Positions 2,053 through 51,396 of a stretch of 64,000 bases of DNA are shown here, piece after piece. This stretch comes from Escherichia phage vB_EcoP-101114UKE3. Location of the stretch: the sequence record NC_070982.1. One strand, 5' to 3'. Position 1 is the stretch's first letter, and each line of letters starts with the position of its first letter. The position numbers were made by a program, and so were the translations under genes. The notes beneath the pieces were generated by a model. That model was given only the letters and a program-made list of their open reading frames with translations, did no database searches and was not told the DNA's origin.

Positions 2053-2080
2053 TAGGAATAGAGGGGAGGGTTCTTTTCGC

Positions 2081-2104
2081 GAGGGATCTCTCCCTTTTTT
2101 ATTT
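2081..2104 (+). terminator. Possible rho-independent terminator or attenuator
   Basis: Short AGGGA / TCCCT hairpin followed by TTTTTTATTTT. Confidence 0.3.
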
Positions 2105-2118
2105 TATTGGAGGAATAT

Positions 2119-3660: not shown

Positions 3661-3666
3661 AAATAG

Positions 3667-3690
3667 GGGAGGCTTTGTCCTCCCTTTAGT
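3667..3690 (+). terminator. Weak terminator-like hairpin
   Basis: GGGAGG / CCTCCC stem with CTTTGT loop followed by only TTT. Confidence 0.3.
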
Positions 3691-3725
3691 AGTTCCTTCC
3701 AAGCTATCACCGAGGGAGAGATTAG

Positions 3726-5969: not shown

Positions 5970-5978
5970 GGATACTGA

Positions 5979-6215
5979 ATGAATACAAGACAGCAATTCA
6001 ATAAAGAGCACGCCGCCGCTTTGGCGGCTCTCAATCACAACGGCATTCTTGACGCAGCATTAGAGGCATTAAAAGAAACCCTCATGAGAGATATTGTATT
6101 AACCGAGGCTCATGAGAATAAGAAACGCGAAGAGTGTTATCAAAAGTATAAAATGGTTGGTAGCTTAAAAGAGGTCATAAAAGCTGCTATCAATAATGCA
6201 GGAGATAATTCCTAA
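5979..6215 (+). CDS. Hypothetical protein (78 aa)
   Basis: ORF between portal and scaffold genes. Confidence 0.45.
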   Translation: MNTRQQFNKEHAAALAALNHNGILDAALEALKETLMRDIVLTEAHENKKREECYQKYKMVGSLKEVIKAAINNAGDNS

Positions 6216-7297
6216 TGGCAAATGATTATATTGACCCGAACGATTTTAAATCTTTCCTCCAACTAGACGACTTAAAAGGCTCCTTCAAAGAAGAGCTTAG
6301 TCAATTAGAATCAGAACGTGAACCAGAAGTGAACATTGATGATGAATTCCCAGAACAGTCTGAGACTTTTGATCTTGATGCTTCCGACCTTCTCGGTGAT
6401 GACGATACGTTAGCGTTCGAAGATGAAGATGGTTGGGAAGATCGTGAAGAGGAAGGCGAAGAAGAAGAGGAAGAGTCTGAGTTCTCTGATGAAGACGATG
6501 AAGAAGATGATTCCGGTGAAGCAGATCACGATGAAGCTGCTAACAGTGATGAAGATGGCGAAGAAGGTGAAGTCTTTGACGTAGATTATGAAACTGTTAT
6601 CACCCTTCCTGATGGTCGTGAGATGACTATTGAAGAGTTGTCTAATGGCTATTTGACTGGTGCAGAAATGTCCGAACGTGAGACTACTTTGCAGCGTCAT
6701 GTTGAAGCTTTTGAAGAACGTGTTTCTGGCTTGGGTGATGTATTAGAACTAGCTGCCCTAGAAGCAGACCGAGTAATTGAAGATTACAACGGTTTTGATT
6801 GGGACAAACTCGCACAAGAAGATCCTCAAGCTTATGTAGAAAATAAACGTTTCTTAGAAAAATATACAGCTCGTCGCCAACAGCTTGAACAAGCTCAGCT
6901 TAAAATCAAGCAAGAAGCACTAGCAAAAGAACAACAGCTCTTCCAAGCTAAATGTACTGAGTGTGTAAGCGTACTTAAACGTGAGATTCCTAATTGGGAT
7001 GACAACTTGTATCAGAACCTGATGCAGTATGCAATCGACTTAGGTGCTACAGAAGAAGAAGTGCTGAAAGAGAACCGTCCGTCAATCTTCCTAGCTCTAC
7101 ACAAAGCATACCAGTTTGATAAAGGTAAGCAGCAGGTGATGGCTAAGATTAAACGTCCCGGCTCTCCACGCAAGGTTGTGAAGTCCGATGCTTCTAAGTC
7201 TCGTTCTTCCAATACGCCAGACAACGCTAAGGTTGCCAAGGCATTCTCAGAGGGTCGTATTCGTCACGAAGATGCATTTAAGTATCTCGTAGATTAA
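6215..7297 (+). CDS. Putative scaffolding protein (360 aa)
   Basis: Very acidic D/E-rich region plus coiled-coil; lies between portal and capsid; RBS AGGAG. Confidence 0.5.
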   Translation: MANDYIDPNDFKSFLQLDDLKGSFKEELSQLESEREPEVNIDDEFPEQSETFDLDASDLLGDDDTLAFEDEDGWEDREEEGEEEEEESEFSDEDDEEDDSGEADHDEAANSDEDGEEGEVFDVDYETVITLPDGREMTIEELSNGYLTGAEMSERETTLQRHVEAFEERVSGLGDVLELAALEADRVIEDYNGFDWDKLAQEDPQAYVENKRFLEKYTARRQQLEQAQLKIKQEALAKEQQLFQAKCTECVSVLKREIPNWDDNLYQNLMQYAIDLGATEEEVLKENRPSIFLALHKAYQFDKGKQQVMAKIKRPGSPRKVVKSDASKSRSSNTPDNAKVAKAFSEGRIRHEDAFKYLVD

Positions 7298-31359: not shown

Positions 31360-32181
31360 TTATTCCCAAGTTTTATCTAACCATGACCAATCAAAGAGGT
31401 CACCTTCAGCTTGTCCAACGAAGAGCAATCGAGCGTTTTCTAACATCTTATCTTCTGCTTCTTCCTCGAACCTCTTATAGTATTCCATTCGTATAATATG
31501 ATAAAGAGTCCACTTATCGAATACCTTCTCAATAAGTTTGATTGCAGCCTTGCTACCAATGCCTTTACGGCGCATAACCAAGTTGCCACCCCACATCATT
31601 TCAACCTTCTCACCACAACCGGGAATATTATCTGTATTATCCCCAATCAACATTTGGTAGAAGAAATTCTGCCATGCTACTTCTTCTGATACATAATGAG
31701 GAGGTACTTCTTTCTGTCTTTCTCCACAAGCCCAACGATAATGCCATCCGGGAGTGATTAACAAATCTTTATCACGAGTACAGATAATCGTATTCTTATC
31801 TCGTCTCTGTCTTTCAGCTAGGGCATCATCTGCCTCTCTCCCAAAGACTTCTACATACTCGTAATTTTCTTTAATATAATCACTAACGTTCTGCCAGTGG
31901 TGGGGTCTTTCTCCCGGTGGGCGATTAGCTTTGTAGCCTTGCTGTTTAGCAATGTTAAATCGAAAGTTACCACCTTCACTGAAGTAAAAGATTGTTTTCT
32001 CACAACCTGACCTTGCAATGATTACATCAATTTTGTGTTGAAGTCGTTCAATCAAGAATCCATAATCAACTGGAACACGACCTGTGTCTAGAAAAGGATG
32101 CTCTTGTGTAAGAGCACCGACTTCATATCGCAGAACATCTGCATCCACAATTGCTACTTCAGGATAGATTACATCAGACAT
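31360..32181 (-). CDS. Flap endonuclease / 5'-3' exonuclease (274 aa)
   Basis: GREADD and IGDNTDNIPG motifs typical of phage FEN / RNase H-type nucleases; ATG at 32181 with GGAGAG RBS. Confidence 0.65.
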   Translation of the reverse strand: MSDVIYPEVAIVDADVLRYEVGALTQEHPFLDTGRVPVDYGFLIERLQHKIDVIIARSGCEKTIFYFSEGGNFRFNIAKQQGYKANRPPGERPHHWQNVSDYIKENYEYVEVFGREADDALAERQRRDKNTIICTRDKDLLITPGWHYRWACGERQKEVPPHYVSEEVAWQNFFYQMLIGDNTDNIPGCGEKVEMMWGGNLVMRRKGIGSKAAIKLIEKVFDKWTLYHIIRMEYYKRFEEEAEDKMLENARLLFVGQAEGDLFDWSWLDKTWE

Positions 32182-32770
32182 AGAGTTCTCTCCGTGTCCG
32201 TACAACAATCCAGTTTAAATAATCTACTGCATCTTCTACAGTAGAATTATTCGCTAGGTAGTATGTATTTCTCTGACTACCTTCAATGTAGGAACGAGAA
32301 TCTCCTTTAAAATCACAACCTTCACGAATCACCTGAATTACCTGAACATGGAAATGTTTCTCTAGTTCTTCAACTTCGGCTTTGAACCCACCATCAGAGA
32401 AGACGATAACATCATTCTGTGATGGGATACGTTGTTGAATACTGCTAACAGCAAGTTTACCCATGCAGGTCTCACCAAACATAGGCTTCAGGTAATTCTC
32501 GCTAGTTGCAATCATCAAGTCTCGAACTGACTTACCGTCCCATTCAGGACGGCTATGTTCTTTCCACTCACGATCGTTGTACAGCTCCATGAACTCATAA
32601 AGAGGTAGACCTAATGCAGCAGCAGCCACTCGATACATAGGCTCCTTAAAAGCCTTTACATGAGGCCTAAACTCGGTGTTACCAAGTGTTTTCTCTAACC
32701 AAGAATTAGCGATTGTATCTTTACCACAACCCGGTGGTCCATTCAGAATTACTACTAATGGTTTACTCAT
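32174..32770 (-). CDS. P-loop kinase, deoxynucleoside monophosphate kinase-like (198 aa)
   Basis: N-terminal P-loop GPPGCGKDT. Confidence 0.5.
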   Translation of the reverse strand: MSKPLVVILNGPPGCGKDTIANSWLEKTLGNTEFRPHVKAFKEPMYRVAAAALGLPLYEFMELYNDREWKEHSRPEWDGKSVRDLMIATSENYLKPMFGETCMGKLAVSSIQQRIPSQNDVIVFSDGGFKAEVEELEKHFHVQVIQVIREGCDFKGDSRSYIEGSQRNTYYLANNSTVEDAVDYLNWIVVRTRRELYV

Positions 32771-37916: not shown

Positions 37917-38128
37917 TGATCTTTCTCCTCTCGTTCAACCCATGTATGGAAAAGCTCCCCATACACTTTGGCATCATCAAAACGTCCTTCTTCCTGTGCG
38001 AGTTTTTGTTGCTTCAAGCACCATTCAGAACTTTTTACTTCTTCCACTTCCTTGTCTCCTTAAAAAGAACTAATCAATAAGACTAGTTCATTTCATAATA
38101 CGATTCAGCTCTTCCACTGAACTAATCA

Positions 38129-38440
38129 CTACTTCTCCACCACAAAGAGGTTAACTTCAATGAAAGTTTCGTATTGTGTTGACTCCTGCTTACGGGTGTA
38201 GTAGAAATGACGACCTTCTAATGCACCTCCGTACTGAGTGGCACATCTTTTAACCATCTCTTTTATCACATCTACAACTGATTCGCCTTTCCACGGACGT
38301 AACCCCTGAGTTGGGACTTTTGCTGTACAGGTTACTTGTGTGTAACCTACATCTTGTAGAGATATCTCAAGAATCAGCTTTGCCCAAGCATCAAAATTAA
38401 GCTTGGGGTTATATTTAACTTCAGTTTTGATATCAATCAT
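38129..38440 (-). CDS. Hypothetical protein (103 aa)
   Basis: Start overlaps the DNA polymerase stop. Confidence 0.45.
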   Translation of the reverse strand: MIDIKTEVKYNPKLNFDAWAKLILEISLQDVGYTQVTCTAKVPTQGLRPWKGESVVDVIKEMVKRCATQYGGALEGRHFYYTRKQESTQYETFIEVNLFVVEK

Positions 38441-40284
38441 TAGTGAGTATGATTCCAGTTTAATCCAATCTTACAATCTGATGCAAGAGGACATTCCATC
38501 TTGAGGTATTCCCCTGCTTTACGAACACATTCTTCAGTGAGGGTACGAAGTTTGTTAACATCATCACGATGTACAGTGAACTGTCCTTCATCATGCATGT
38601 CAATAACCTTCGCACAACGAACACCATCCCGCTCAATCCATTTATTGAGGAATAGCATTGCATACTTCATAACAATCGCCCCAGCGCTCTGTAAGAGTGT
38701 ATTTAAGGCTTTATGGACCATAACCTTTCCAGTTGCATCTCTTCTCATTGTAATACGACGTCCATCCACACCGTAGATATATCCACTTTGCGCTTTCTCT
38801 GTCATACGTTCAATAAGGATTGCAATACAAGGGTTCTCTGCTAAGAATCTTGCTCTCATGATAGCCCCTTCGTCAGAGCCACCACCTACAATACTTCCTA
38901 ACTTAGCGTCACCTGCCCCATAGTTAAAGGCATAGATAAACGTTTTAGCATTATCACGAGTAGGAAGGCCAGCAAGTTTTTGGTTATGTGAGTGAATATC
39001 TCCTTCTAAAAGAATATCTCTATACATAACAGCAGAAGCTAGACCACGTTCAGCTTCTCGTTTCTTAGCCGGGTTGTTTTCTCGCTCTGCTTCAGCGAGC
39101 ATCTCACGACATTCTTTAATAAGGTAGTGAGCTAGCATCCTCAGCTCAAGACCAGAGCCATCGTAACCTAAGAAGATTTCACGACCAGCAGGAACATAGA
39201 ACTTATAGGCACCTACGGGTTTGTCTTTCTTGCCCGGTTTTCCCACTTCGTAGATAATGTTAGTACCCTTTCGTACGTAACACCCATCAGGGATATGGTT
39301 GGTAATGATGAAAGGATGGTTATGACTATCGTCTGAGGAATAGTCAGATTGAAAAAGACTGCGGCACTCGTGACCAAACAAACCGCGAGAAGGAATATTA
39401 ACAACAATGCGATGTTTAAAACGAAATGTCGGAGTAGCGCAGCTATTAGCTTCGGCGGACAACTTACCATCTTTACGTTCCTTGTCGATAAGCCCGCTAA
39501 TCAAACCTAGCCTGTGAGCCGCTACAACGCGTCTCTTAAGCAAACTTCCTACACCCCCTAGCTCACCCCCAAGCCCCTCTTCAAGAGTCTCCTCAAGGTT
39601 TGTAGGGGCTGTGGGCCACTTGTTTGATGTAGCCAAAGCTTTTTTGATTTCATCAAAGGTTACAGGTTTCTTCCTATTCGGATTAAGACCTAAACCACTG
39701 ACGTAGGCTTTCATGTAGTTGACAGTGTGATAACGGAAATGTTTATCCAAAAATCTTCGGATATCAGCATCTATCATCTCCGCTGTCTGTTTCTCTTTAG
39801 CATTACCTCGAATCCAAGCAGAATACCATGCAGAGTATGTACCATACTTCTTCATAGCTCTACGGATTTCAAATGTATTCCAAGGTTTCTTAGAATAATT
39901 CCACTCTGGAGGTATGAAGCCCTCATCCATCAAGGCTTCTTTAATACGTGCATCTTTCGATGGGTCGAAGTCTACATACTCAACGCAAGTAAACGCCCCA
40001 CCGATATCTTCTCTTTTAAGACCAACCCTATCGCAATAGAGCTGAGGCCACTTCTGTAAAGCACCTGATTTCTTAAAAGGCTTAGCATAAGTTGAACCAT
40101 CCACCCGCATTTTAGGGAGGAGAGGAATCAGTTCTTTATCAATATTGACAATAATCTCTTTGAGAAGGTGAACAAACCACCGAGCGTTTCTTCTGTTGAA
40201 GTTGACTCCATGCTTCGCTTGTTTTGAGATTATATCAGCGACTGTCATCTCCGTTATGAAAGGTAACTTATCAGGGTTATCCAT
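38440..40284 (-). CDS. DNA polymerase, family A, polymerase domain only (614 aa)
   Basis: Motif A DGSGLELR, motif B RDNAKTFIYAFNYGAG, motif C IDMHDEGQ; ATG at 40284 with AAGGAG RBS; no 3'-5' exonuclease domain in this ORF. Confidence 0.8.
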   Translation of the reverse strand: MDNPDKLPFITEMTVADIISKQAKHGVNFNRRNARWFVHLLKEIIVNIDKELIPLLPKMRVDGSTYAKPFKKSGALQKWPQLYCDRVGLKREDIGGAFTCVEYVDFDPSKDARIKEALMDEGFIPPEWNYSKKPWNTFEIRRAMKKYGTYSAWYSAWIRGNAKEKQTAEMIDADIRRFLDKHFRYHTVNYMKAYVSGLGLNPNRKKPVTFDEIKKALATSNKWPTAPTNLEETLEEGLGGELGGVGSLLKRRVVAAHRLGLISGLIDKERKDGKLSAEANSCATPTFRFKHRIVVNIPSRGLFGHECRSLFQSDYSSDDSHNHPFIITNHIPDGCYVRKGTNIIYEVGKPGKKDKPVGAYKFYVPAGREIFLGYDGSGLELRMLAHYLIKECREMLAEAERENNPAKKREAERGLASAVMYRDILLEGDIHSHNQKLAGLPTRDNAKTFIYAFNYGAGDAKLGSIVGGGSDEGAIMRARFLAENPCIAILIERMTEKAQSGYIYGVDGRRITMRRDATGKVMVHKALNTLLQSAGAIVMKYAMLFLNKWIERDGVRCAKVIDMHDEGQFTVHRDDVNKLRTLTEECVRKAGEYLKMECPLASDCKIGLNWNHTH

Positions 40285-40300
40285 CACCCACTCCTTATAG

Positions 40301-40654
40301 TTATTGGTATATTAAGTCTGTGAATGCTTGGTTGTCTTCAACAATATCTAAAGCTTCATATGAATCAGACAATTCATCCACATAAAAGACTGCTGGAATA
40401 TCTTCTGCTCGCTGTCTACGAGATTCCCTTTGTTCATTGATATTTCTTTGAACCTGTGCAAGTTTCATACCCCACACCTGCTCATACAACTCTGGATATT
40501 TGTCACTAACCACTACATAATTTCGAGCTGGTTGGTTTCTATTAATCTTCGCTGTCAACTCAATAAACTGGCGAAACTCTTGAATAGAGAGGTTGTCATG
40601 AATATTATCCCATTTGAGAACGCAGTGACGTTCTAGGCATTGAGGTACTGGCAT
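40301..40654 (-). CDS. Hypothetical protein (117 aa)
   Basis: RBS GTGGAG. Confidence 0.45.
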   Translation of the reverse strand: MPVPQCLERHCVLKWDNIHDNLSIQEFRQFIELTAKINRNQPARNYVVVSDKYPELYEQVWGMKLAQVQRNINEQRESRRQRAEDIPAVFYVDELSDSYEALDIVEDNQAFTDLIYQ

Positions 40655-40657
40655 AAC

Positions 40658-40915
40658 TTACTCCACTGTCGGGAATGGTTTTAGGTTGTTCATGGCTGTA
40701 CGAACATCAGCACAGATTTCAGGATCACGATAAGAGAGGAATTTACCATCCTTACCACGAATCATTACATTAGTCCGTGATGTTTTATTAGGCAATAAAG
40801 AAATCCCTCCAATAAGATGGTTGGTAGGGTGTTGTCCTTGATTAACCTTGTAGTCATGAGTCTGAGCGTCACCATTAAAGAGATGATCACGAATTTGGAT
40901 TAAGCTAATCTTCAT
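40658..40915 (-). CDS. Small hypothetical protein (85 aa), tandem paralog of 40917..41168
   Basis: ATG at 40915 coupled to the upstream stop (TAATATG); shared RTNV-x-RG-x-DGKF-x-S-x-RD...NLKPFP motif. Confidence 0.45.
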   Translation of the reverse strand: MKISLIQIRDHLFNGDAQTHDYKVNQGQHPTNHLIGGISLLPNKTSRTNVMIRGKDGKFLSYRDPEICADVRTAMNNLKPFPTVE

Positions 40916-40916
40916 A

Positions 40917-41168
40917 TTATGCACCAAAGTTAGGGAAAGGTTTCAGATTTTCAATAGACTTAGCAATACGCTTAGGAACAGCCTTATCACGGAAGGAGAT
41001 GAACTTTCCATCAGGACCACGAAGGGCTACATTAGTACGAGCTGTTGTTTTGTTAAACTGAATCATCTCAACAGAGCTTGTAACATTTTCTACAGGAAAA
41101 GTATAGCTCTCAGTTGTGTTCAGAGAAGGGAGGAAATCAGTTACAGTGATGTAAGTTACTTTAGACAT
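40917..41168 (-). CDS. Small hypothetical protein (83 aa), tandem paralog of 40658..40915
   Basis: ATG at 41168 with AAGGT RBS; the ORF-track start at 41204 lies inside the terminator hairpin. Confidence 0.45.
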   Translation of the reverse strand: MSKVTYITVTDFLPSLNTTESYTFPVENVTSSVEMIQFNKTTARTNVALRGPDGKFISFRDKAVPKRIAKSIENLKPFPNFGA

Positions 41169-41198
41169 ATTTATTACCTTAGGTTCTATAAAAGAAAA

Positions 41199-41220
41199 GG
41201 CCACCCGAAATGGGTAGCCT
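41199..41220 (-). terminator. Rho-independent terminator (minus strand)
   Basis: Minus-strand RNA reads GGCUACCC-AUUUC-GGGUGGCC followed by UUUUCUUUU. Confidence 0.45.
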
Positions 41221-41224
41221 TATA

Positions 41225-41539
41225 TCAACTTGAGCTTAAAGCTCCTTTGCGACCGCCTGCTGATTTTCCAGCACGATCTCCACTTTTGCCGCCGTTCGAG
41301 CGATTTCGAGAGACTGATTCAACACGTAAGTTACTTGACGCATTAGAACCTCCCGACTTGATTGATCGTTTGTGTCCAACATCTTTACCTCGGACAGCAG
41401 CTTTTCCATCGCGCTTTTCAACGATGCGACGTGCACGGTGGCGCTGAGCATCTCCGCTCTTGCTACCAACGCCGGTCTCACCCCTTGCGATTGCAGTTCT
41501 TCGTTCTTGTGCATAATCACGTTTCGCCTTATCGGTCAT
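41225..41539 (-). CDS. Highly basic low-complexity R/K/G/S-rich protein (about 104 aa), candidate nucleic-acid binder
   Basis: Strong AAGGAG RBS, its own TAATGTATA element and terminator; local GC is visibly higher and an alternative-frame ORF 41236..41520 is also open. Confidence 0.4.
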   Translation of the reverse strand: MTDKAKRDYAQERRTAIARGETGVGSKSGDAQRHRARRIVEKRDGKAAVRGKDVGHKRSIKSGGSNASSNLRVESVSRNRSNGGKSGDRAGKSAGGRKGALSSS

Positions 41540-41574
41540 CATAACTCCTTAATATATCAGTGTACACTAAGGAG

Positions 41575-41583
41575 TATACATTA
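41575..41583 (-). promoter_or_regulatory. Candidate promoter element TAATGTATA upstream of the basic-protein gene
   Basis: Minus strand reads CATAATGTATACTCC about 35 nt upstream of the ATG; overlaps an 8-bp inverted repeat ACTCCTTA / TAAGGAGT that includes the RBS. Confidence 0.35.
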
Positions 41584-41586
41584 TGT

Positions 41587-42324
41587 TTATGATTTTTCAG
41601 ATTCCATTGCTTTAACAATAGCTTTACAGAAACCTGAACGAACAATATCATCCGATTCGCCATCTACTAGAGCGGCAAATTCAAATAACTGGTGACGGTA
41701 GATGAAATCAGTAGCCCAATCAAGACCGCTCTCACCACGCATGTCGTGCTGGTTAGTGTCCCCCATGCAGAACATCTGAGAGGTTTCACCAAGACGTGTC
41801 ATGATTGAATATGCTTCATCAGGAGTAGTGTTCTGGAACTCATCAACAATCACGATAGCATCGTTGAACGAGCGACCACGTAGATATTCCAGAGGTACGA
41901 ACTCAATATTACCATTACCTACTTGACATTCGTAGAAACCTTTACCGTAGCGCTGAGTAATAACATCAACGATTGGCATTAGGTATGGTTCAAACTTCTC
42001 ACGAAGCCCACCGGGAAGTAATCCAAGACTATTACCCATACCAACAGCAGGTCGGCTTAGGATAATCTTCTCAATCTTCCCACTCTTCAGAGCATCAATC
42101 ACTGTAGAAGTGATTACGAAGGTCTTACCACAACCAGCAGGAGCATCTGTGAATACAACCTGTTTGGTTTTAATTGCATCAAGCAGCTCACTCTGGAATT
42201 GGTTCTGAGGTACTACCGGCTTAGCAAGAACTACTTCTTCAAATTCCCGCTTTCCTTTCTTGGTGACGAGAGCTTCACGACGTAATTCTCTCCGTGATGC
42301 TTTCCGAGATTCTCTACGACTCAT
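41587..42324 (-). CDS. phoH: PhoH-like ATPase (245 aa)
   Basis: Walker A-containing FTDAPAGCGKTF and PhoH-like downstream blocks; RBS GGAGG. Confidence 0.8.
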   Translation of the reverse strand: MSRRESRKASRRELRREALVTKKGKREFEEVVLAKPVVPQNQFQSELLDAIKTKQVVFTDAPAGCGKTFVITSTVIDALKSGKIEKIILSRPAVGMGNSLGLLPGGLREKFEPYLMPIVDVITQRYGKGFYECQVGNGNIEFVPLEYLRGRSFNDAIVIVDEFQNTTPDEAYSIMTRLGETSQMFCMGDTNQHDMRGESGLDWATDFIYRHQLFEFAALVDGESDDIVRSGFCKAIVKAMESEKS

Positions 42325-42502
42325 TTCCTACCTCCGTGTTCTTCATATAAGAAGCTACAGGATTTACACTCTGAGCAATGGATACCTATAACCTTAATTT
42401 CGACAAACTTCTTATTCTTCCCTTTAGTCGGGGAGCCTTTGGCAAGCTCCCGTATTACTTTCGAGTCCAAATGGAGAAGAGTTGATTCACATTTAAAACA
42501 TT

Positions 42503-42823
42503 TCAGATTGATTTGTCCTTATGTAAACGGTATACTTCAGTAGCCATACAAGCTATACGCTCGTCATGTGGGAGATGCATACCAGTAGAGCCGTTCCATC
42601 CTTCGAACTCTGAATCAAAGAATCCAATAGGCTCGGGATACATCTCTTGCAAGGTGGTTAAGTCATCAGCCACTTGTTGCCACTTATCGTCAGACCAGAT
42701 TGGGTCATCCAACCAATAATACAAATAGGAGTGGATAAGCATCTGTGTTCTATGTCGTTTAATCACTTCAGCAGGACTGATTTCATTTCCGTTACCAGTC
42801 CTAAATGTATTATTGTTGATCAT
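42503..42823 (-). CDS. Small protein resembling the N-terminal Ia domain of NAD-dependent DNA ligase (106 aa)
   Basis: YLYYWLDDPIWSDDKWQQVADDLTTLQEMYPE parallels the LigA pattern YLYHV-D-P-I-D-EYD-L...LE-HPEL; no KxDG adenylation motif. Confidence 0.35.
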   Translation of the reverse strand: MINNNTFRTGNGNEISPAEVIKRHRTQMLIHSYLYYWLDDPIWSDDKWQQVADDLTTLQEMYPEPIGFFDSEFEGWNGSTGMHLPHDERIACMATEVYRLHKDKSI

Positions 42824-43299
42824 TCCAAAACCCTTTCTTCTAAATCATAAAAGATTTGATTTGTCCCATTATTCTCAACAAGCACTGTTCCATTATCTAG
42901 CAGGGTAGCAACTTGGGAATAAGGAATGTTCTTTAACATCAGAGCATTAATGGTCGGCTTGTTTTTGAAGTAAGCGACAGGCTCAACATAGAAGGAAATC
43001 CCACGACTTCCTTTAATTGGGGTGCTTGAAGATAGAACCCAAATTGTTTCTGGCTTGTCTATTTCCTTTTCAACACCAACCTCAACAAGAGAGTCAGCAG
43101 CGAAACCTACAGGACGCCTAGAAGAACCAAGCAACCGAACATATCCCGGTAATTTTGACATATTAGACCAACTACCAGTGTTTTCATTAAACACAGGTCT
43201 TACATCACCATATGCCCAAACCAGATTATCATAGTCACGGGCTATGTATTTAACCCAATCAGGAACATCATACTCCCTTCCTTCAAAAATAGCTTTCAT
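42820..43299 (-). CDS. Hypothetical protein (159 aa)
   Basis: RBS AAGGT. Confidence 0.45.
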   Translation of the reverse strand: MKAIFEGREYDVPDWVKYIARDYDNLVWAYGDVRPVFNENTGSWSNMSKLPGYVRLLGSSRRPVGFAADSLVEVGVEKEIDKPETIWVLSSSTPIKGSRGISFYVEPVAYFKNKPTINALMLKNIPYSQVATLLDNGTVLVENNGTNQIFYDLEERVLE

Positions 43300-43494
43300 T
43301 TAGATAACCTTGTGCTTATAGATGTTAGGGTTGTAGTAATGCAACCAGTTTATGTATTGTTTCTGTTCAAGGTAGTGTCTGCAATCATGACAAAAAGCAT
43401 GACCCAAACCTGTTTCCTCGTTCAGCTTGAAGTTGATAAGAAGCTTCTGCTTTTGACAGAAGCTACATGCTTTAGTGGGCTTCACGTAATGCAT
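43300..43494 (-). CDS. Small Cys/His-rich protein, possible zinc ribbon (about 64 aa)
   Basis: C-x2-C ... C-x2-C pattern; start uncertain because the ORF-track frame overlaps the ThyX-like 3' end and the RBS is weak. Confidence 0.25.
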   Translation of the reverse strand: MHYVKPTKACSFCQKQKLLINFKLNEETGLGHAFCHDCRHYLEQKQYINWLHYYNPNIYKHKVI

Positions 43495-44122
43495 CCCATG
43501 AGATTGGGAAAAGTTTACGAAGCTCTTCATCAACAGTTGATGCGAACACTCGTACTTCATACTGAGCATGGTCGGACAGTCGCTGACGACATAACTCTGA
43601 CCAGCCATATAAAGAACCTGTCCACACCCACTCAGTGATCATACCTTGAGGTAGAACGAATCGGGCTTGCTCTGGAGCAATAAACTTAATCAACTCATCA
43701 TATGACTCAAGAGCTGTTTCATATGCCCGATTAATCAGAACTAGTGCAGAGTTTTGCGCTCCCGTGGTGAGGAGATTCCCCGCACCTGCATGGAGGTCCG
43801 AAGGTCTTTCAAAAATCTCTTTAGGGATGAAGAGTTCAACTGCTCCATCTTTATACCGCCGGGACATTTCGTTCCACGAGAATCCAACTTGATGCTTGCC
43901 CAGCTGTCTCGCAATTGCGATTGGCGCTTTGCATCGGAAGCTAATTGTCGGATGGCGGAATGGTGTGACATGCTTTTCTCTGGCAAGGAACTTGATAAGG
44001 CGTTCATCTCGTTCATTTAACTCTCCTTCACGAGTAACCCCAAAGGAAACTCGAGCTGCATTAACAACAGATTTATCAGAACCCATTGCTTCAATTAGTG
44101 TTGCTTGTAATTGTTCGTTCAT
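43472..44122 (-). CDS. thyX: ThyX-like flavin-dependent thymidylate synthase homolog (216 aa), divergent
   Basis: ARVSFG, ARQ...NE-S-RRY and LPQG-x-T blocks fit the ThyX fold, but the RHR signature position reads KHQ. Confidence 0.5.
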   Translation of the reverse strand: MNEQLQATLIEAMGSDKSVVNAARVSFGVTREGELNERDERLIKFLAREKHVTPFRHPTISFRCKAPIAIARQLGKHQVGFSWNEMSRRYKDGAVELFIPKEIFERPSDLHAGAGNLLTTGAQNSALVLINRAYETALESYDELIKFIAPEQARFVLPQGMITEWVWTGSLYGWSELCRQRLSDHAQYEVRVFASTVDEELRKLFPISWDALREAH

Positions 44123-44136
44123 CCTTGAATTCTTCC

Positions 44137-44352
44137 TTAGTAATGAATCTTTTTATAAATCAGGTTGCTTCCACTTTCTGTTTCAATCCCTTTCTGGATT
44201 GTAATCTTAGAAGCACCGGTATTAGCAATTTTTAAAGCTCGTTTAAAGCGGCGAGCCTCTCTCCGTGTTGTGTATGAGGAGAAGCTAGGGATTGTACTAT
44301 CAAAATTAAACCACTTAACTACCCAAAAAGTAATCCAAGGTTTCTTTTCCAT
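44137..44352 (-). CDS. Small hypothetical protein (71 aa), member of a three-gene paralog family
   Basis: Shares W-x-W...TRREAR...KITI-x-K...Y-x-K-x-HY with 46217..46432 and 46432..46629. Confidence 0.45.
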   Translation of the reverse strand: MEKKPWITFWVVKWFNFDSTIPSFSSYTTRREARRFKRALKIANTGASKITIQKGIETESGSNLIYKKIHY

Positions 44353-44353
44353 A

Positions 44354-44629
44354 TTAAATACCTTTCAGAGCTGTATCTAAAAACGCACGGAGGTTTGATT
44401 CAGTTTGCATACCGGACAAGCTGTAGTGAGCACCACTGTTCATGTTAGGAACCACAAAGGCTGGGATACTGCGAACACCATATTCAATGGCTCGCTCTCG
44501 ACCATTACCTTCAGAGATATTTACTTCTTCAACTTCTACGTTGTAATCAGCTACAACTTTCTTAAACACAGGAGCCATAGCTGCACACGGAGCACAGGAA
44601 TTACTATAAAACTTAATTACTTTACTCAT
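44354..44629 (-). CDS. Thioredoxin-like protein with CAPC active site (91 aa)
   Basis: FYSNSCAPCAAMAPVFKKV resembles the thioredoxin WCGPC region; ATG at 44629 with AAGGA RBS. Confidence 0.6.
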   Translation of the reverse strand: MSKVIKFYSNSCAPCAAMAPVFKKVVADYNVEVEEVNISEGNGRERAIEYGVRSIPAFVVPNMNSGAHYSLSGMQTESNLRAFLDTALKGI

Positions 44630-44819
44630 TTTATTCCTTGTTAATAAACAGATTGATATGACGTTGGGTAGCAGGAACAACAATAAAAGATTTATACTGA
44701 CCTTTTGCTAAGTCATGAGCAATCTTCTTTGTCTGACTAAGACCCATTACACAGCCACTAACAATAATAGCATGTGCTTGTAGCTCTTCAGGTAGGTTTA
44801 GTTTCACTCTTTGGGTTCC

Positions 44820-45005
44820 TTATAGCATACAAAGAATAATAACAAGAGGTAGTGTTATAGCAAAATGTACCAGAACAACACTACCTAGCTTGATAGCTTT
44901 AACATCCTCTTCTGCTGGGTTTTCTTTAATTGCTAAATTTCGAGCTTTATATATAACAGTACCAACTATTAACGACCACACGGCCCACACAATCAGTGAA
45001 ATCAT
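44820..45005 (-). CDS. Small two-TM membrane protein (61 aa), tandem paralog of 45015..45194
   Basis: Two hydrophobic helices flanking a KENP-containing loop. Confidence 0.4.
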   Translation of the reverse strand: MISLIVWAVWSLIVGTVIYKARNLAIKENPAEEDVKAIKLGSVVLVHFAITLPLVIILCML

Positions 45006-45014
45006 ATCAAACCC

Positions 45015-45194
45015 TTATGCAGTCAACAGGTGGAGAAGGAAAGGAATGACAACAGAGAAGACTACCAGAGCAATGCTGCCATGTTTAATGGGTTTAGCGT
45101 CATTCGGGTTCTCTTTAAGCATCTGTTTCTGAGCTACATAAACGATACCGCCAACAAAAATTGCCCATACAGACCATACGATTGCTGAAAACAT
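45015..45194 (-). CDS. Small two-TM membrane protein (59 aa), tandem paralog of 44820..45005
   Basis: ATG at 45194 with AAGGA RBS; same helix-LKENP-helix layout. Confidence 0.4.
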   Translation of the reverse strand: MFSAIVWSVWAIFVGGIVYVAQKQMLKENPNDAKPIKHGSIALVVFSVVIPFLLHLLTA

Positions 45195-45257
45195 ACTCAT
45201 ATCCTTATAAAGAAGTTCGCCCCACCTCTTGAACAAAGAGACAGGGCGGAGGTTTGA

Positions 45258-45824
45258 TTAGTAAGACACATCACCACTGGAGTGGGACATGTTGCTCTTG
45301 ACGAAGTAACAGAACTTGCCAAGACCTTCATTAATTTCTTGAAGCATACTCTGGTCCACTGGATAGGTGCACAAGTCTGAATCAAACTCATCCATCTTCT
45401 CAATGATACACATAAGAGTCATGCACATGTCGGAAAGCATACCGTCCATGTCAAGATCAGCGTTACCTTCTCGGAACCAAGCATGACCTAAATAATTACT
45501 AGCAGTAGCATCCACTTTAACACAATGAAAGCGCATACGCTCTGCTATTCGGTCGCCTGCCTCACGAGCATAATCTTCTAGTTCATCGAACATACCATGA
45601 ACACCTTGGAAACCAGCTCCAGAGACGTTCCAGTGGTAGTTCTTTGCTTTGATGTGTAGAAGTTCAAGGTTAGCTTGCACACCACACAAGATGTGTTCTA
45701 AGCTGTTACCGCTAATCAGTTTATTCATTCCCTCAAGACGAGAGATAGAAGAGTCAGTAGCAGAGAATGGGTTGCTAGAACCCACTCGTGTTAGTTCTGG
45801 TAAGTCGAAGACATTATTATGCAT
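45258..45824 (-). CDS. Dps-like ferritin-fold protein (188 aa)
   Basis: KNYHWNVSGAGFQGVHGMFDELEDYAREAGDRIAERM matches the Dps pattern HW-x-V-x-G-x-F...H...F-x-E...D-x-IAER. Confidence 0.65.
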   Translation of the reverse strand: MHNNVFDLPELTRVGSSNPFSATDSSISRLEGMNKLISGNSLEHILCGVQANLELLHIKAKNYHWNVSGAGFQGVHGMFDELEDYAREAGDRIAERMRFHCVKVDATASNYLGHAWFREGNADLDMDGMLSDMCMTLMCIIEKMDEFDSDLCTYPVDQSMLQEINEGLGKFCYFVKSNMSHSSGDVSY

Positions 45825-46146
45825 TAGGTGCATCCCCTTCTAAGTTAGTTGAATTAGCTACATTACGAGCAATGTTATCCATGACCTGCTGTGTAATAAC
45901 AATGCAATTCTGAGGGTCTACTGATTTAGAACGCCCCATCTCAGGGTCATAGACTTTGACTCGCTTGGCTGTTGAGCCAGTAACTTGCAACACTTTGAGA
46001 AGATAGCCTTGGTTTCCAATAGACCATGCAACAACATCACGATTCTTGATATAACGACCAAGCATGTCACGATGATAGAACTGCTGCATAACTTTAGCTT
46101 TGCTAATCTCTTCAGATGGCGGGGCCACTTTACTCAAATCTAACAT
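45817..46146 (-). CDS. Hypothetical protein (109 aa)
   Basis: ATG at 46146 with AGGAGAG RBS; a near-copy of the TAATGTATA element lies about 40 nt upstream. Confidence 0.4.
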   Translation of the reverse strand: MLDLSKVAPPSEEISKAKVMQQFYHRDMLGRYIKNRDVVAWSIGNQGYLLKVLQVTGSTAKRVKVYDPEMGRSKSVDPQNCIVITQQVMDNIARNVANSTNLEGDAPNA

Positions 46147-46216
46147 AACTCTCTCCTGTTTCATACAATATTCTTATACTGTATATACATTTGAGAGTTA
46201 TCATATCTACTACCAA

Positions 46217-46432
46217 CTAGTAATAAACCTTGCTGGATATGAATCCAGCACTGTTATGGATATTTTCAATCCAACGATGAATCTCCACCTTTTCAGCGAT
46301 TCCTAAAGCTTTTGTAGCTTTTATAGTTTTCTTAGCAAGACGAGCCTCTTGTCTTGTGTTGAATAATTGAATACAATCACCACCAAGAGCTTTGTTAGCC
46401 CATTTAGTACGAACTGCCCATAATTTATCCAT
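46217..46432 (-). CDS. Small hypothetical protein (71 aa), paralog family member
   Basis: NTRQEAR and SSKVYY motifs shared with 44137..44352 and 46432..46629. Confidence 0.45.
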   Translation of the reverse strand: MDKLWAVRTKWANKALGGDCIQLFNTRQEARLAKKTIKATKALGIAEKVEIHRWIENIHNSAGFISSKVYY

Positions 46433-46629
46433 TAGTAATGTACCTTTCCGCTGATATAGAAACGACCTGATTTAAAGTCTTGAGCTTTGTGGATAGTGAT
46501 CTTATTAATTGTGCTTTCACAACTTAATAAGAACTTCTTATGAGCGCGAGCTTCTTGACGGGTATTCCTAATACCCATTGACTCTGTACCACTGCTCCAG
46601 TGAATACGAACTACCCAACGTCTTTTCAT
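46432..46629 (-). CDS. Small hypothetical protein (65 aa), paralog family member
   Basis: ATG at 46629 with GTGGAG RBS; NTRQEAR...ITIHK...SGKVHY. Confidence 0.45.
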   Translation of the reverse strand: MKRRWVVRIHWSSGTESMGIRNTRQEARAHKKFLLSCESTINKITIHKAQDFKSGRFYISGKVHY

Positions 46630-46643
46630 TGTTCCAAACTCCA

Positions 46644-46835
46644 CTATCTGTCAACCGATTTAGGGACAAACTGCATTACACAGACCTGACTACGAGGGAG
46701 ATTTATTTCACAAGCGGCTCTTCTCGTCTCAATCTTAACGCTAGAATCTGGACCAACGTTAGATATAAATACTCCCATAGCAAATGCCCCAACTACAAAA
46801 CCTATAGCTAAGTAAGTAGCTTTTTCTTCTTTCAT
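46644..46835 (-). CDS. Small membrane protein (63 aa)
   Basis: N-terminal hydrophobic helix; weak RBS. Confidence 0.35.
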   Translation of the reverse strand: MKEEKATYLAIGFVVGAFAMGVFISNVGPDSSVKIETRRAACEINLPRSQVCVMQFVPKSVDR

Positions 46836-46840
46836 CTTGG

Positions 46841-47374
46841 TTATACACCCTTAGATGCAACTACACCATTACTGCCGTTGTATCGACCCTTCACTGCATA
46901 AGAGTCATCACCAGCGTGAGAGTGTTCGAACATAACCATTTGACCAACACGCATCCCAGCACGAACTCGTAAGCTATGATTATGGGTAACGTTATGAAAT
47001 TCAAAGGTTAGTTTACTGCTGTTAAACCCTGCATCAGCCCAACCAGCATGGAGGTGGTTTAAACCACAACGAGCCATTGAGGAGCGAAGTACAAACAGGC
47101 TTGAGATGTTATCTGGAAGGTTAAACTCTTCCATTGAGTGCGCTAAGAAGAATTGCCCCGGAGTGATAACAATACCATCTTCAGGGATTTTTACTTCTTT
47201 CCACTTGAGGTTTTCTTTAGCATCAATGTCAACAATTCCGTCAGCCTGTTCTTCAACAAGGATAGTATCACCAATACGGATATCCACGCTAGCAGCGTTA
47301 ACATATTTATGCTCCGCATCTAAAAAGCCATTATCAATAACGCTGTGTAATTCTTGAGAACCTAAAAGACTCAT
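46841..47374 (-). CDS. dcd: dCTP deaminase / dUTPase-family enzyme (177 aa)
   Basis: SSMARCGL and GWADAGFNSSKLTFEF blocks typical of the dCTP deaminase family. Confidence 0.7.
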   Translation of the reverse strand: MSLLGSQELHSVIDNGFLDAEHKYVNAASVDIRIGDTILVEEQADGIVDIDAKENLKWKEVKIPEDGIVITPGQFFLAHSMEEFNLPDNISSLFVLRSSMARCGLNHLHAGWADAGFNSSKLTFEFHNVTHNHSLRVRAGMRVGQMVMFEHSHAGDDSYAVKGRYNGSNGVVASKGV

Positions 47375-48819
47375 GAGTTTCTGTTTCCTTGTACAGATGA
47401 TGCCAAATTATTAATCATGTTACGAGCTGTTTCACGAGATAGTGTAACACCTGCTAAGTTGTTATGAAGCTCACCAGATAGCTCACGAGCAGCAGCTCGA
47501 AGTTCTGTACCAAGTGTAGTATCGGAGTGAGCCAAACCATTACGACGACTATAAGGTCGAGGAGCTTCGTTAGCGTCATTAGCCAATGATGCAAAACCAA
47601 TATGAGCAGCTTCACGAGACGCTATAGTTGACACTCGATCTTCCGTAGGGGTTGGCAAATCACCAACTTCTACACGTTCTATATCACCAGCACGTAGACC
47701 CTGAACGACTGAGCTTACTGTTTCCCATGAACGACGAGAACGCTGTAAATCACCCATTGACGGAGAAGAAGCAGGTCGAACAGTTACTCCACCTGTATCA
47801 TGAGTGACATGCCATGTACGAGTATCCATTCCAGAAGAGCGTGCACTACCAAAACTGCCAGTGAAAGTGTCACGAGGTGCCATTGTAGGAGGAACTGCGA
47901 ATCTTTCCTGTTGCCAAGAATCGCGTCTGTTAGTTCCCGGAGTCCAAGGCTGCGTGATTGCTTCAGCACCTATAGTGGTTAATCCGCTAGACCATTCTGT
48001 CTGTAGGTTAACTTCCTCGTCCAGATAACTACGACCCCTTTCCTGAGGAATGTTTAATATAGTTTCCATCATCTTCAGGGTATAATGACGACGCTGATTC
48101 TGATATAAATTTACACCAGCCATAGGTCCAACTAAATCACTAATCAGGTGAACTTCTGGCTCACCGAAAGCTCCCATTGCAAGGTGCATATATTCGGTAG
48201 AACTGCTATAAACTGCAACAGTTGCTTCAGGCCACTTCTTGTGAACATACTTCATTTCACGACCAGATACCACAGGAATGTCACGAGTGTATGACATTGC
48301 AAACAAACCTTCGTTTGACACATACATGTCATCAAGAGACATGAACCCCTGACAGATCATAGGAAAGCGACGGCTTAAAGTATCCATATCCAAAGGTAGA
48401 TTAATCATCATCTGGATTTTAACTTGATCAATCTCAATTTCCAGAATCTCTTGGAAAGTGAAAAGTGCTTCAGCGTAAGTTGTCCCACTAACAGGCTGAA
48501 CTAGGCGAGATGTAGTTTGAAGCCCTTTACTCTCTGTCCAAGACAAGAAGTTGTCAAGGAACAGTGCAGCATTCATCACGTTAGCAGGGTTGTTTTCCTG
48601 ACGGGTGTTCCAACGAAACCCTCCTTGGACTAGGAAGATATCCACATCATTCGGAGTTCGGTTCTGGAAGAACGTATCACGGATAGCACCACCTGCAATA
48701 ACAGGGTAGATACCATCAGGAACTACGTTGTCTCTGATCAGATTGCGAATCAGATCAAGCCCTACGCTGAGGGCTTCTCCTTCTTGAAGGTTTAATTCAG
48801 ACAATGGAATCTTAATCAT
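47371..48819 (-). CDS. Nucleotidyltransferase-fold protein with long S/T/R/G-rich C-terminal region (about 482 aa)
   Basis: GG-x13-DVD pattern (VIAGGAIRDTFFQNRTPNDVDIF) fits Pol-beta-type NTase; ATG at 48819 sits 2 nt after the exonuclease stop. Confidence 0.5.
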   Translation of the reverse strand: MIKIPLSELNLQEGEALSVGLDLIRNLIRDNVVPDGIYPVIAGGAIRDTFFQNRTPNDVDIFLVQGGFRWNTRQENNPANVMNAALFLDNFLSWTESKGLQTTSRLVQPVSGTTYAEALFTFQEILEIEIDQVKIQMMINLPLDMDTLSRRFPMICQGFMSLDDMYVSNEGLFAMSYTRDIPVVSGREMKYVHKKWPEATVAVYSSSTEYMHLAMGAFGEPEVHLISDLVGPMAGVNLYQNQRRHYTLKMMETILNIPQERGRSYLDEEVNLQTEWSSGLTTIGAEAITQPWTPGTNRRDSWQQERFAVPPTMAPRDTFTGSFGSARSSGMDTRTWHVTHDTGGVTVRPASSPSMGDLQRSRRSWETVSSVVQGLRAGDIERVEVGDLPTPTEDRVSTIASREAAHIGFASLANDANEAPRPYSRRNGLAHSDTTLGTELRAAARELSGELHNNLAGVTLSRETARNMINNLASSVQGNRNS

Positions 48820-48821
48820 TT

Positions 48822-49370
48822 CTACATTTTCCAATTTAGAGATGGGGGATTCTTATAATCAAATCCAGCCATTTGGCAAAGACACATGTAAACCTTAACT
48901 GTCAAGTTAACGTCTTGCTCACAATACGTGAACATGTCTTCAGTGAATGCATCCCATGCTTCTTCCTGTTCACCATAATCACCCTTCAGCTCTCCCAGAA
49001 ATTCGCCCCATTGCTTGAGGCCATGACCGCGAGGGCCATGTCTAGGGTCGCCTTTGGGGTATTCTGGACTATCACCAATACGGTCAGGCTTGAGATATCT
49101 ACTCAGGCACAAAGTATCGAAGACGTTAAAGCGAAAAGGTATCACATGAGAATAAAACTTAAACAAAGCAGGAAGGTCAAAATCAATAATATTGTGACCT
49201 ATTACTACATCAGCTTCTTTCAGTTTGTGTAGTGCTTCTTCAATTTGGTGAGGGCGATACCCCCACCGCTCTCCAGATAATACATCAAATATCCAGATAC
49301 ACCAGACATTCTGAATACCATCATAGAGATTATCACCCTCGATATCAAACGCATACAGTTTCTTTACCAC
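48822..49370 (-). CDS. DnaQ-like 3'-5' exonuclease, stand-alone proofreading domain (182 aa); GTG start
   Basis: Exo I FDIE, Exo [13 protein letters not shown], Exo III YCEQD; GTG at 49370 preceded by GGAGG. Confidence 0.65.
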
Positions 49371-51154
49371 GGACGTGCCTCCCCTTCCTGTGCAAGTAAG
49401 GAAGCTGCATCCTCTCCATTGGTAACGGTAAAAGGATGCTCTTCATCAACTTCATGATCTTCTCGTTCTACAAGACGACCTGTTTCGTTAATGTATTTGG
49501 TATAGCAAACCCCTGTCTGTCCATAGTTACGCTCTTTGAGCAGTCGTATGATTGACAAGTTTTTACCTAACCCATCCGCTTGTTTGTTACGTTCAAAACC
49601 AATAATACACTGACACCAGCGCATCAATGAACGTGAACCAGTAAACTGTACTTCTTTAACCTGACCACCTTCTTCGTGAGGTGCACCACCTGCCGGAGCG
49701 TTCAAGTGAGATAATACAAAAGCAGTGAAGTCTAATTCCTTACACATACCAGCAAGCTCTGAAGCAATCTTGCTGATTTCTGTGTTTACCTCAGATGGGG
49801 TTAAGTGAGATACCAATGCAGTGATGTTATCAAGAATGATAAATTTACACTGATTCTCAACTACCCAAAAGCGAATACACTGCTTAATGTCTTCCCACTC
49901 GTTCTGCCCAAAGTTGTCATACAAGAAAAACTTATCAGCGTATCGAAGTGCTTCATCTCGTAGCTGGCTTTCTTCGTACTCAACATCTGGTCGGTGGAAT
50001 GGAATAGATGCAGATTTACCTGCAATGTTCTTAACAGACATGCCTACCTTCTCTTCCAAGAAGAAGCCACCACCATTAAAACCATGCTCAAGGCAAAGCC
50101 ATGCTACTAGTTCGTGTGCGATTAAGGTTTTACCTGAACCAACACCACCGCCGATTGCAACCATCTCTCCCCAACGAATACCAAAGGTCATGTCGTTAAG
50201 AGTTTTCCACGGATAAGGAATACCCCATTCCGCTTTCTTCAGAGCATCTTCGAGGCAATCAAAAACTGTAACAGCTCCAGCAGGAGATTCCCGCTTAGCT
50301 GAATATTTCAGATTGTTGAAAAGCTCTTGACCTCTCCCTGCAAGTAACATGTCGTTTGCATCTTTGATTTCCTTTTCTTGTCCGTTATAAGTGAACGTAC
50401 CTTTTGGAATCCTTGCAAACTTAACATGCGGGTACAGAGAACGACCCTTAGTTAAAGCAATCTCACCTGCATCATCATTGTCCATGCAGAGTACAATCTC
50501 CTCGAAACCATTAATAAAATCACGGTTTCTTGATAATACAGAAGAGATTGAACCTGCACCGAACGGAAGAGAGACGCAAGCAGGTTTGATGTTAGTTGCG
50601 TTTGTAAACGCGGTAAGTACGTGGAACCCAGACATACAAGAGAGAGGATCTTCAAAGATGAAGAGTTTCTTGTTGTATACGTCACCACGTTGTGCTTGAG
50701 CCATACCAAACAAGTCGGCTTCTTTCACATTACCTACATAATAGAACTTCTTGCTGTCTAGAAGTTTTACTTCATATCCAACAATGTTCCCATCACGTTC
50801 ACGAGGGAAGAAGTAGCTGTCAGGAGTTTGACCATCTGTTTGGCTTAAACCGATACGGCATCCATAACGTTCAGATACAGCTTTAGGAATTAAGCGACGA
50901 GTCAACTCTCCCTGAGGAAGCTCTAAGCAATCGTCTAAGACTTCTCGGAGTTCTTCAGGGGACAGCTCTTTCTTTTCATTAGGAGTGGGCGTCGTTCCTT
51001 TCTCGAAGATTTCATACGCACCACATCTGTTACATGAACCCCACTCCTCACCGGACTCTTCATTTCGGAAGAGAATCATGTGATTGCGGGTCTTATCACG
51101 ACCATGAGAGATACACTCTTTACAGCCTGTGTCTCCCAAAATGATCTTTGACAT
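49364..51154 (-). CDS. Primase-helicase (596 aa)
   Basis: N-terminal C-x2-C...C-x2-C zinc ribbon, central primase-like region, C-terminal Walker [10 protein letters not shown]; RBS AAGGAGG. Confidence 0.8.
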
Positions 51155-51189
51155 GCTCTATCCTCCTTGGAATTCCTTGAGCAATCTTC

Positions 51190-51396
51190 TTAGTAAAACG
51201 ATCGTATTTCTTCCCACACATCATCTTGCAAGTTTCTAAAACCCTGCAAGGTTTGCTTTGTTCTGTGAATAAATTCTTCAGAGTGCTTATCAGGTGTGAG
51301 CATACTGACAAACTTTTCATAGCGATTAATCTTCCACCGCATCTTCAAGTAGTCAGATTCCAGCTTTCTTAACTTCTGCCTGTCAGTTACTGTCAT
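51190..51396 (-). CDS. Small hypothetical protein (68 aa)
   Basis: ORF-track frame 51190..51492 trimmed to the ATG at 51396. Confidence 0.35.
   Translation of the reverse strand: MTVTDRQKLRKLESDYLKMRWKINRYEKFVSMLTPDKHSEEFIHRTKQTLQGFRNLQDDVWEEIRSFY

Follow-up and report, generated by a model that had tools for sequence, protein, structure and literature searches.

A T7-type family A DNA polymerase is encoded by two separate, non-adjacent genes in Escherichia phage vB_EcoP-101114UKE3 (NC_070982.1), from which we analysed a stretch of 64,000 nucleotides (nt), hereafter called the window. One gene specifies a stand-alone 3'-5' proofreading exonuclease and the other a polymerase that lacks an exonuclease domain. 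A preliminary description of this DNA, made from its letters alone, had claimed a DnaQ-type exonuclease gene starting with GTG and carrying Exo I, II and III motifs, a 614-aa open reading frame (ORF) with polymerase motifs A, B and C, and a distance of about 8.5 kb with roughly 20 genes between them, and had pointed out that both activities reside in one polypeptide in T7-type polymerases. Profile searches and conserved motifs bore out both gene assignments, the distance from the exonuclease stop to the polymerase start proved to be 8,537 nt with 22 annotated coding sequences (CDSs) between them in GenBank, and T7 gp5 is indeed a single 704-aa chain that spans both ORFs. The claim of a split family A polymerase on non-adjacent genes was supported in every test run. 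We show here that each of the two products represents one half of a T7-type replicase, and that both halves are intact, separately translated and under purifying selection.

The exonuclease ORF has the same coordinates as GenBank CDS 101114BS3_053 (48822-49370). Its GTG start lies 7 nt downstream of a ribosome-binding site, GGAAGGGGAGG (GGAGG), and shares bases with the stop codon (TAA) of the primase/helicase ORF at 49364-51154 (GTGGTAA), so that translational coupling of the two genes is possible. The product scored just above the cut-off for Pfam DNA_pol_A_exo1 (PF01612; 24.2 bits, cut-off 23.6) and matched the PHROG entries for 'DNA polymerase exonuclease subunit' (PHROG 38876 and 403) with E-values of 2.6e-67 and 3.1e-37. 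Using phmmer, it matched residues 4-142 of T7 gp5 (E = 4.3e-08), and MAFFT carried the alignment on to about residue 205. The protein has the DEDDy exonuclease pattern (Exo I DxE, Exo II Nx(4)D, Exo III Yx(3)D), and the residues D9/E11, H59-N60/D65 and Y149/D153 of these motifs were invariant in an alignment of 41 stand-alone homologues. An AlphaFold2 model built with a homologue alignment reached a predicted local distance difference test score (pLDDT) of 95.7 and a predicted template modelling score (pTM) of 0.90, and its best 27 matches in the PDB (Foldseek) were all T7 DNA polymerase chains. Apart from two truncated entries (105 and 137 aa), each of the 52 closest homologues (46-96% identity) is a stand-alone protein with a length of 163-189 aa; many homologues are located on phage-sized contigs. 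These data identify the product as a DEDDy (DnaQ-like) exonuclease of the PolA/T7 type, with a predicted 3'-5' activity. Membership in another family (RNase H-like proteins, DnaQ epsilon or oligoribonuclease), which would have undermined the preliminary description, was ruled out, the best sequence and fold matches being to T7 gp5 and those to other DEDD nucleases being far weaker.

The polymerase ORF corresponds to GenBank CDS 101114BS3_030 and matched Pfam DNA_pol_A (E = 4.5e-24, 85.5 bits; cut-off 34.3) and PHROG_17 'DNA polymerase' (E = 3.2e-82). It is collinear with T7 gp5 from about residue 181-206 to residue 702 (phmmer, E = 5e-33; MAFFT), and the key residues of motifs A, B and C (D375; R443/K447/Y451; H564-D565-E566) were invariant in an alignment of 52 polymerase-only homologues. 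Y451 aligns with Y526 of T7 at the motif-B position B3, where a Tyr is the criterion for the T7-like subfamily (PMC10201439). The AlphaFold2 model, again built with a homologue alignment, had a pLDDT of 90.8 and a pTM of 0.78, and its best 27 Foldseek matches in the PDB were likewise all T7 DNA polymerase chains; T7 gp5 is the closest solved relative of both ORFs by sequence and fold alike. Judged by its sequence, the polymerase ORF is a T7-like member of family A (cd08643; cluster #5 of PMC10201439). The alignment also revealed two clade-specific insertions that are absent from T7, at residues ~160-260 and ~315-368, and a thumb insertion at the homologous place that is ~22-25 residues shorter than in T7, where it forms the thioredoxin-binding domain, and in Vibrio phage ICP3. 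Searching with the exonuclease ORF by BLASTP, we found no exonuclease domain inside the 106 closest polymerase homologues, and just 8 of the 120 polymerase homologues listed were fused relatives, which are more distant and ~600-637 aa long. A hidden exonuclease domain within the polymerase ORF was ruled out, as its N-terminus aligns to T7 only from residue ~206 and none of the 106 closest homologues has such a domain.

The two ORFs match adjacent stretches of the PHROG_17 profile, the exonuclease at positions 670-826 and the polymerase at positions 837-1233, and are therefore consecutive pieces of one polymerase. The preliminary description had proposed an alignment to T7 gp5 to define the domain boundaries. 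A MAFFT alignment of the exonuclease plus polymerase with T7 gp5 and with LUZ24 gp25, gp34 and gp36 placed the break at approximately T7 residue 205, in the linker that joins the last helix of the exonuclease to the first helix of the polymerase, and the site was the same with eight fused relatives aligned. Because the motif residues of both proteins are invariant across their homologues, we conclude that both genes are functional and maintained. The coordinates of the two genes, their motifs and their neighbours are listed in the table.

Table. Features of the split polymerase and of its surroundings in the window (strand and positions as in the window; residue numbers refer to the respective ORF)
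Feature	Coordinates	Strand	Details
Stand-alone 3'-5' proofreading exonuclease gene	48822..49370	-	182 aa; GTG start at 49370-49368; corresponds to T7 gp5 residues 1 to ~205
Exo I motif, D9-I10-E11	49338..49346	-	D and E invariant; aligns to T7 D5/E7
Exo II motif, H59-N60-I-I-D-F-D65	49176..49196	-	H, N and D invariant; aligns to T7 HNGHKYD
Exo III motif, Y149-C-E-Q-D153	48912..48926	-	Y and D invariant; aligns to T7 YNVQD
Polymerase-only family A (T7-like) DNA polymerase gene	38440..40284	-	614 aa; ATG start; AAGGAG ribosome-binding site; corresponds to T7 gp5 ~206 to 704
Motif A, D375-GSGLELR382 (residues 375-382)	39139..39162	-	D375 and E380 invariant in 52 homologues; aligns to T7 DASGLELR
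Motif B, RDNAKTFIYAFNYG (residues 443-456; R443-DNAK447-TFIY451-AFNYG)	38917..38958	-	Tyr where T7 has Y526
Motif C, H564-D565-E566-GQ (residues 564-568)	38581..38595	-	
T7 gp4-like primase/helicase gene	49364..51154	-	596 aa; TAA stop overlaps the exonuclease GTG
Intervening block of 22 same-strand genes	40285..48821	-	Includes 'nucleotidyltransferase', dCTP deaminase, thioredoxin, ThyX, solo Nlig-Ia and PhoH
Phage thioredoxin gene	44354..44629	-	91 aa; Pfam Thioredoxin E = 3.9e-12; CAPC site (canonical CGPC)
Putative 5'-3' (FEN-type) exonuclease gene	31360..32208	-	Pfam 5_3_exonuc_N and 5_3_exonuc weak, below cut-off; IME267 orthologue annotated 'exonuclease'

The region at 38000-51200 is 100% identical to Escherichia phage vB_EcoP-101114BS3 (MZ234015.1; Gordonclarkvirinae, Kuravirus) and shows 93-99% nucleotide identity to phages IME267, HC-25922, MLP3 and ECBP2. 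It matched 97 phage records, 17 of them with a coverage of at least 80%. Within the window, the first 25 kb correspond to the structural module of phiEco32-like phages, and from ~30.5 kb onward, where the GC skew changes sign, every gene lies on the minus strand. The window thus stems from a phiEco32-like (Gordonclarkvirinae) podophage of E. coli. Its genes follow the order of the Gordonclarkvirinae replication module, namely GGCT, primase/helicase, exonuclease, nucleotidyltransferase, dCTP deaminase, thioredoxin, ThyX, Nlig-Ia, PhoH and polymerase, and both order and annotations agree with the tables of ECBP2 and MZ234015.1. The phiEco32-like phages as a group (Kuravirus, Suseptimavirus and other Gordonclarkvirinae) have the same split system and differ from the window in nothing substantial.

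The same arrangement extends beyond this group. In five of the six genomes examined (the window, ECBP2, LUZ24 and the two metagenomic loci L009 and L010) the exonuclease gene comes immediately after the primase/helicase gene or overlaps it, and one small ORF separates the two genes in the sixth, PJNS034. The distance from the exonuclease to the polymerase gene ranges from 2.3 kb with 8 genes in LUZ24 and 3.2 kb with 9 genes in L009 to 8.5 kb with 22 genes in the window and more than 10 kb in L010; genes for dCTP deaminase, ThyX and a solo Nlig-Ia domain recur in this gap. T7 and ICP3 have the primase/helicase gene, a few small genes and then a single fused polymerase gene. The two halves appear to co-occur, as the longest contigs of at least eight exonuclease/polymerase homologue pairs match in length and both genes were seen in ECBP2, LUZ24 and L009.

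The closest parallel outside the phiEco32-like phages is with the LUZ24-like Pseudomonas phages (Bruynoghevirus), whose two genes are named 'DNA polymerase part I / part II' and whose break, located in the same linker, agrees with that of the window to about one aligned residue. In LUZ24 the primase/helicase gene overlaps at its end with the exonuclease gene, and exonuclease and polymerase are set apart by small unrelated genes, as they are in the window; the polymerase domains of both have large insertions relative to T7 in common. LUZ24 differs from the window in its shorter gap and in an endonuclease-containing intron after motif B, and the sequences have diverged: polymerase identity is ~41-42% (to the LUZ24-like sequences P0120 and P0124) and the identity to the LUZ24 exonuclease is 32%. 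The S-SBP1-like and S-CBP4-like cyanopodoviruses likewise have a T7-like PolA cut at the exonuclease/polymerase linker into two genes, and the thumb insertion of these split enzymes is shorter than that of T7, as in the window. Their genes, however, are adjacent and overlapping as the result of a recent +1 frameshift (PMC10201439), whereas the halves in the window are separated by the long gap described above.

A neighbour-joining tree of the polymerase domain united the window, LUZ24 and all other non-adjacent split enzymes in one clade (bootstrap 64/100), whose sister group consists of compact fused enzymes. This clade is large; it far exceeds the cyanophage split in size and divergence, and S-CBP4, which represents the latter, falls outside it. 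The non-adjacent split therefore probably goes back, with moderate support, to one old linker fission shared with the LUZ24-like phages and followed by the accretion of genes in the gap; as S-CBP4 lies outside the clade, this fission appears to be independent of the one in cyanophages. The exonuclease half would have kept its ancestral place right after the primase/helicase gene, and the polymerase half would have shifted downstream by 8.5 kb as genes of nucleotide metabolism and small accessory genes built up in between.

The explanation that fits best, and that we consider quite likely, is that an old break in the linker left a T7-type replicase on two genes, the products of which re-associate non-covalently. 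The 182-aa exonuclease and the 614-aa polymerase would dock through the equivalent of the interdomain interface of T7 gp5, and the docked pair would serve as a proofreading replicase, partnered by the gp4-like primase/helicase and perhaps also by the phage thioredoxin. An AlphaFold2 complex of the split exonuclease and polymerase of S-SBP1 superposes on the fused PolA of Syn5, which indicates that the halves still associate there (PMC10201439).

Several points weigh against this explanation. The association of the two proteins is deduced from homology, from the apparent co-occurrence of their genes and from the published model of another split polymerase, and we found no biochemical study of a phiEco32-like or LUZ24-like split polymerase in the literature searched. 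The support for a single fission is moderate, coming from a neighbour-joining tree only and with the bootstrap value given above. Moreover, two strong hairpins with T-rich tails lie in intergenic positions between the two genes, on the coding strand, at 45248-45218 (13-pair stem) and 41221-41197 (10-pair stem). They are possible terminators or attenuators that could uncouple the expression of the halves, and both count as candidates only, because the number of terminators in our promoter/terminator scan was not above the shuffled expectation. Lying 8.5 kb apart with these two candidate hairpins between them, the exonuclease and polymerase genes may be on different transcripts and their products may be made in unequal amounts.

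It is unlikely, though not negligibly so, that the exonuclease has ceased to be a polymerase subunit and acts alone or with another partner such as the possibly coupled primase/helicase, either as a trans-acting proofreader or as a nuclease for repair, recombination or the degradation of host DNA, with the polymerase running without a bound exonuclease domain. The position of the exonuclease gene next to the primase/helicase gene in all but one of the genomes examined, far from the polymerase gene, would fit this alternative, as would the possible terminators between the halves, and the two polymerase insertions absent from T7 could compensate for the missing domain. However, the T7-like gene order has gene 4 just before gene 5, so the adjacency to the helicase gene is ancestral and calls for no new partnership. 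Both its sequence and its fold place the exonuclease nearest to the corresponding domain of T7-type polymerases and not to free nucleases, and the two genes appear to co-occur. In addition, PolAs are reported to need their exonuclease domain for structural stability (PMC10201439), which argues against a polymerase that works without one.

More doubtful still is a wider reading that joins several of these elements. It holds that the phiEco32-like, LUZ24-like and Vp_R1-like phages and many uncultured phages of 45-115 kb go back to one ancient fission distinct from that of the cyanophages, and that the exonuclease is a true replisome subunit, its synthesis coupled to that of the primase/helicase and its docking achieved through the polymerase insertions (~160-260 and ~315-368), possibly with thioredoxin. 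If this were true, proofreading could be regulated or exchanged, and the split would not merely re-form the shape of T7 gp5.

A rejoining of the two products into one chain, by a split intein or by RNA trans-splicing, is highly improbable. One genome paper loosely terms the two genes 'exons' of the polymerase (PMC3890496), and the polymerase gene of relatives harbours group I introns and HNH genes. However, neither ORF matched an intein family in Pfam, and the ends of the ORFs abut within the homologous linker in the alignments to T7 and to the fused relatives, which leaves no spare residues for the halves of a split intein. Each ORF also has its own ribosome-binding site, start and stop, and 22 independently coding genes lie between them. 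On these grounds inteins, split inteins and trans-splicing were ruled out. An artefact of sequencing or assembly, or a pair of decaying pseudogenes, for which we found no point in favour, is practically excluded by conservation across independent genomes, as the same layout occurs in the 17 near-full-length matches and in the 97 matching phage records from independent isolates, as well as in LUZ24-like phages and metagenomic contigs, with invariant catalytic residues. The check for inteins and artefacts suggested by the preliminary description thus revealed neither.

The re-associated replicase that we favour may be compared with T7 gp5, acting with E. coli thioredoxin and gp4. Both systems have a gp4-like primase/helicase encoded upstream and a Tyr at position B3, and they differ in that the window has two chains in place of one, the shorter thumb insertion and a thioredoxin of its own. 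Separate polymerase and proofreading chains that assemble non-covalently are also found in E. coli Pol III, with its alpha and epsilon (DnaQ) subunits, and in archaeal PolD, with DP1 and DP2. These enzymes belong to the unrelated polymerase families C and D, however, and their exonucleases did not arise by fission of the polymerase that they serve. The analogy between split PolAs and PolD has been drawn before (PMC10201439).

The genes of the intervening block are not polymerase parts but were inserted between its halves. Among them, the thioredoxin gene, which also occurs in the matching gap of L010, encodes what we hypothesize to be a processivity partner of the T7-like polymerase; phage thioredoxins have been proposed in this role for C3 phages (PMC7881722). 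Outside the block, the FEN-type gene listed in the table is predicted from its sequence to supply a third Pol I-like activity, again on a gene of its own. Directly downstream of the exonuclease gene, a 482-aa ORF (47371-48819, minus strand) matched PHROG_12715 'nucleotidyltransferase' (E = 2.2e-165); it fell into none of the Pfam families, and a sequence search of the PDB yielded no significant hit. The 'nucleotidyltransferase', exonuclease and dCTP deaminase genes form a tight run.

Other members of the block carry labels that deserve comment. Of NAD-dependent DNA ligase, the 106-aa product of 42503-42823 (minus strand) has just the Ia domain, which binds NAD+ (Pfam Nlig-Ia, 116.6 bits), so that the label 'DNA ligase' given to it by RefSeq and PHROG overstates its content. 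Solo Nlig-Ia proteins of phages have been described already, the ECBP2 orthologue ECBP2_0056 being an example (PMC9503650), and an Nlig-Ia domain is also encoded just upstream of the polymerase gene in L009. The gene at 45258-45824 (minus strand) is annotated 'integrase' in GenBank MZ234015.1, which is probably a mis-annotation: its product matched PHROG_3636 'DNA binding protein' (E = 9.9e-53) and, weakly, a ferritin-like Pfam family, and the orthologue in RefSeq ECBP2 is named 'DNA binding protein'. Two families of small paralogous genes are present in several copies on the minus strand of the gap, PHROG_4939 in three (44137-44352, 46217-46432 and 46432-46629) and PHROG_6814 in two tandem copies (40658-40915 and 40917-41168).

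We also observed further breaks in related polymerase genes. The ECBP2 gene (L001, 1941-4392, minus strand) is cut between H564 and D565 of motif C by an insert that bears an HNH endonuclease gene, whereas the corresponding site in the window (codons 564/565, ~38590-38595) is uninterrupted. The insert is a candidate group I intron, with a full-length match to the Rfam group I intron that remained below the gathering score (27.2 bits, E = 9.3e-5). Phage SU7 has three CDSs annotated 'DNA polymerase', and several metagenomic polymerase homologues are ~450-aa pieces whose coverage stops after the first 72-74% of the query, which would fit a break near motif B (443-456). In S-CBP4 (L007, NC_025464.1), a stretch of ~3.7 kb (1703-5382) is without a RefSeq CDS and contains ORFs that may be a primase/helicase in pieces, together with overlapping exonuclease (3489-4007, 172 aa) and polymerase (3911-5236, 441 aa) ORFs that resemble the adjacent-fission type (PMC10201439). 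A T7-like metagenomic contig of 9,356 bp (L006) has, at 4396-6539, a 298-aa piece with the exonuclease and the start of the polymerase domain, a 253-aa DNA_pol_A piece and then a GIY-YIG (T5orf172) gene; the position of this break differs from that in the window.

The split itself is already known for this exact genome and phage group, being annotated in GenBank and described for the group in the literature. ECBP2_0072 is named 'DNA polymerase exonuclease subunit' in RefSeq, and phage YF01 was reported to have a DNA polymerase with separately encoded 5'-3' and 3'-5' exonuclease subunits (PMC9965538, 2023). Separate exonuclease and polymerase genes were noted in 2012 in every LUZ24-group phage (PMC3517423), and that paper mentions a similar organisation for phiEco32, with reference to Savalia et al. 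2008. Czernecki et al. (2023; PMC10201439) described the exonuclease/polymerase fission of S-SBP1-like T7-like phages as found 'for the first time' in PolAs; LUZ24 is not mentioned there.

As a discovery the finding thus matters little, and the layout is real and ordinary. Its residual value is modest and lies in a split lineage that is larger, older and non-adjacent compared with the one in the 2023 reclassification of family A, that stands outside the published structural analysis of PolA fission and that appears to be biochemically uncharacterised. These phages would offer a convenient natural system for asking whether a family A polymerase domain keeps its stability and processivity without a covalently attached exonuclease domain, and whether proofreading may be adjusted through the stoichiometry of the two subunits.

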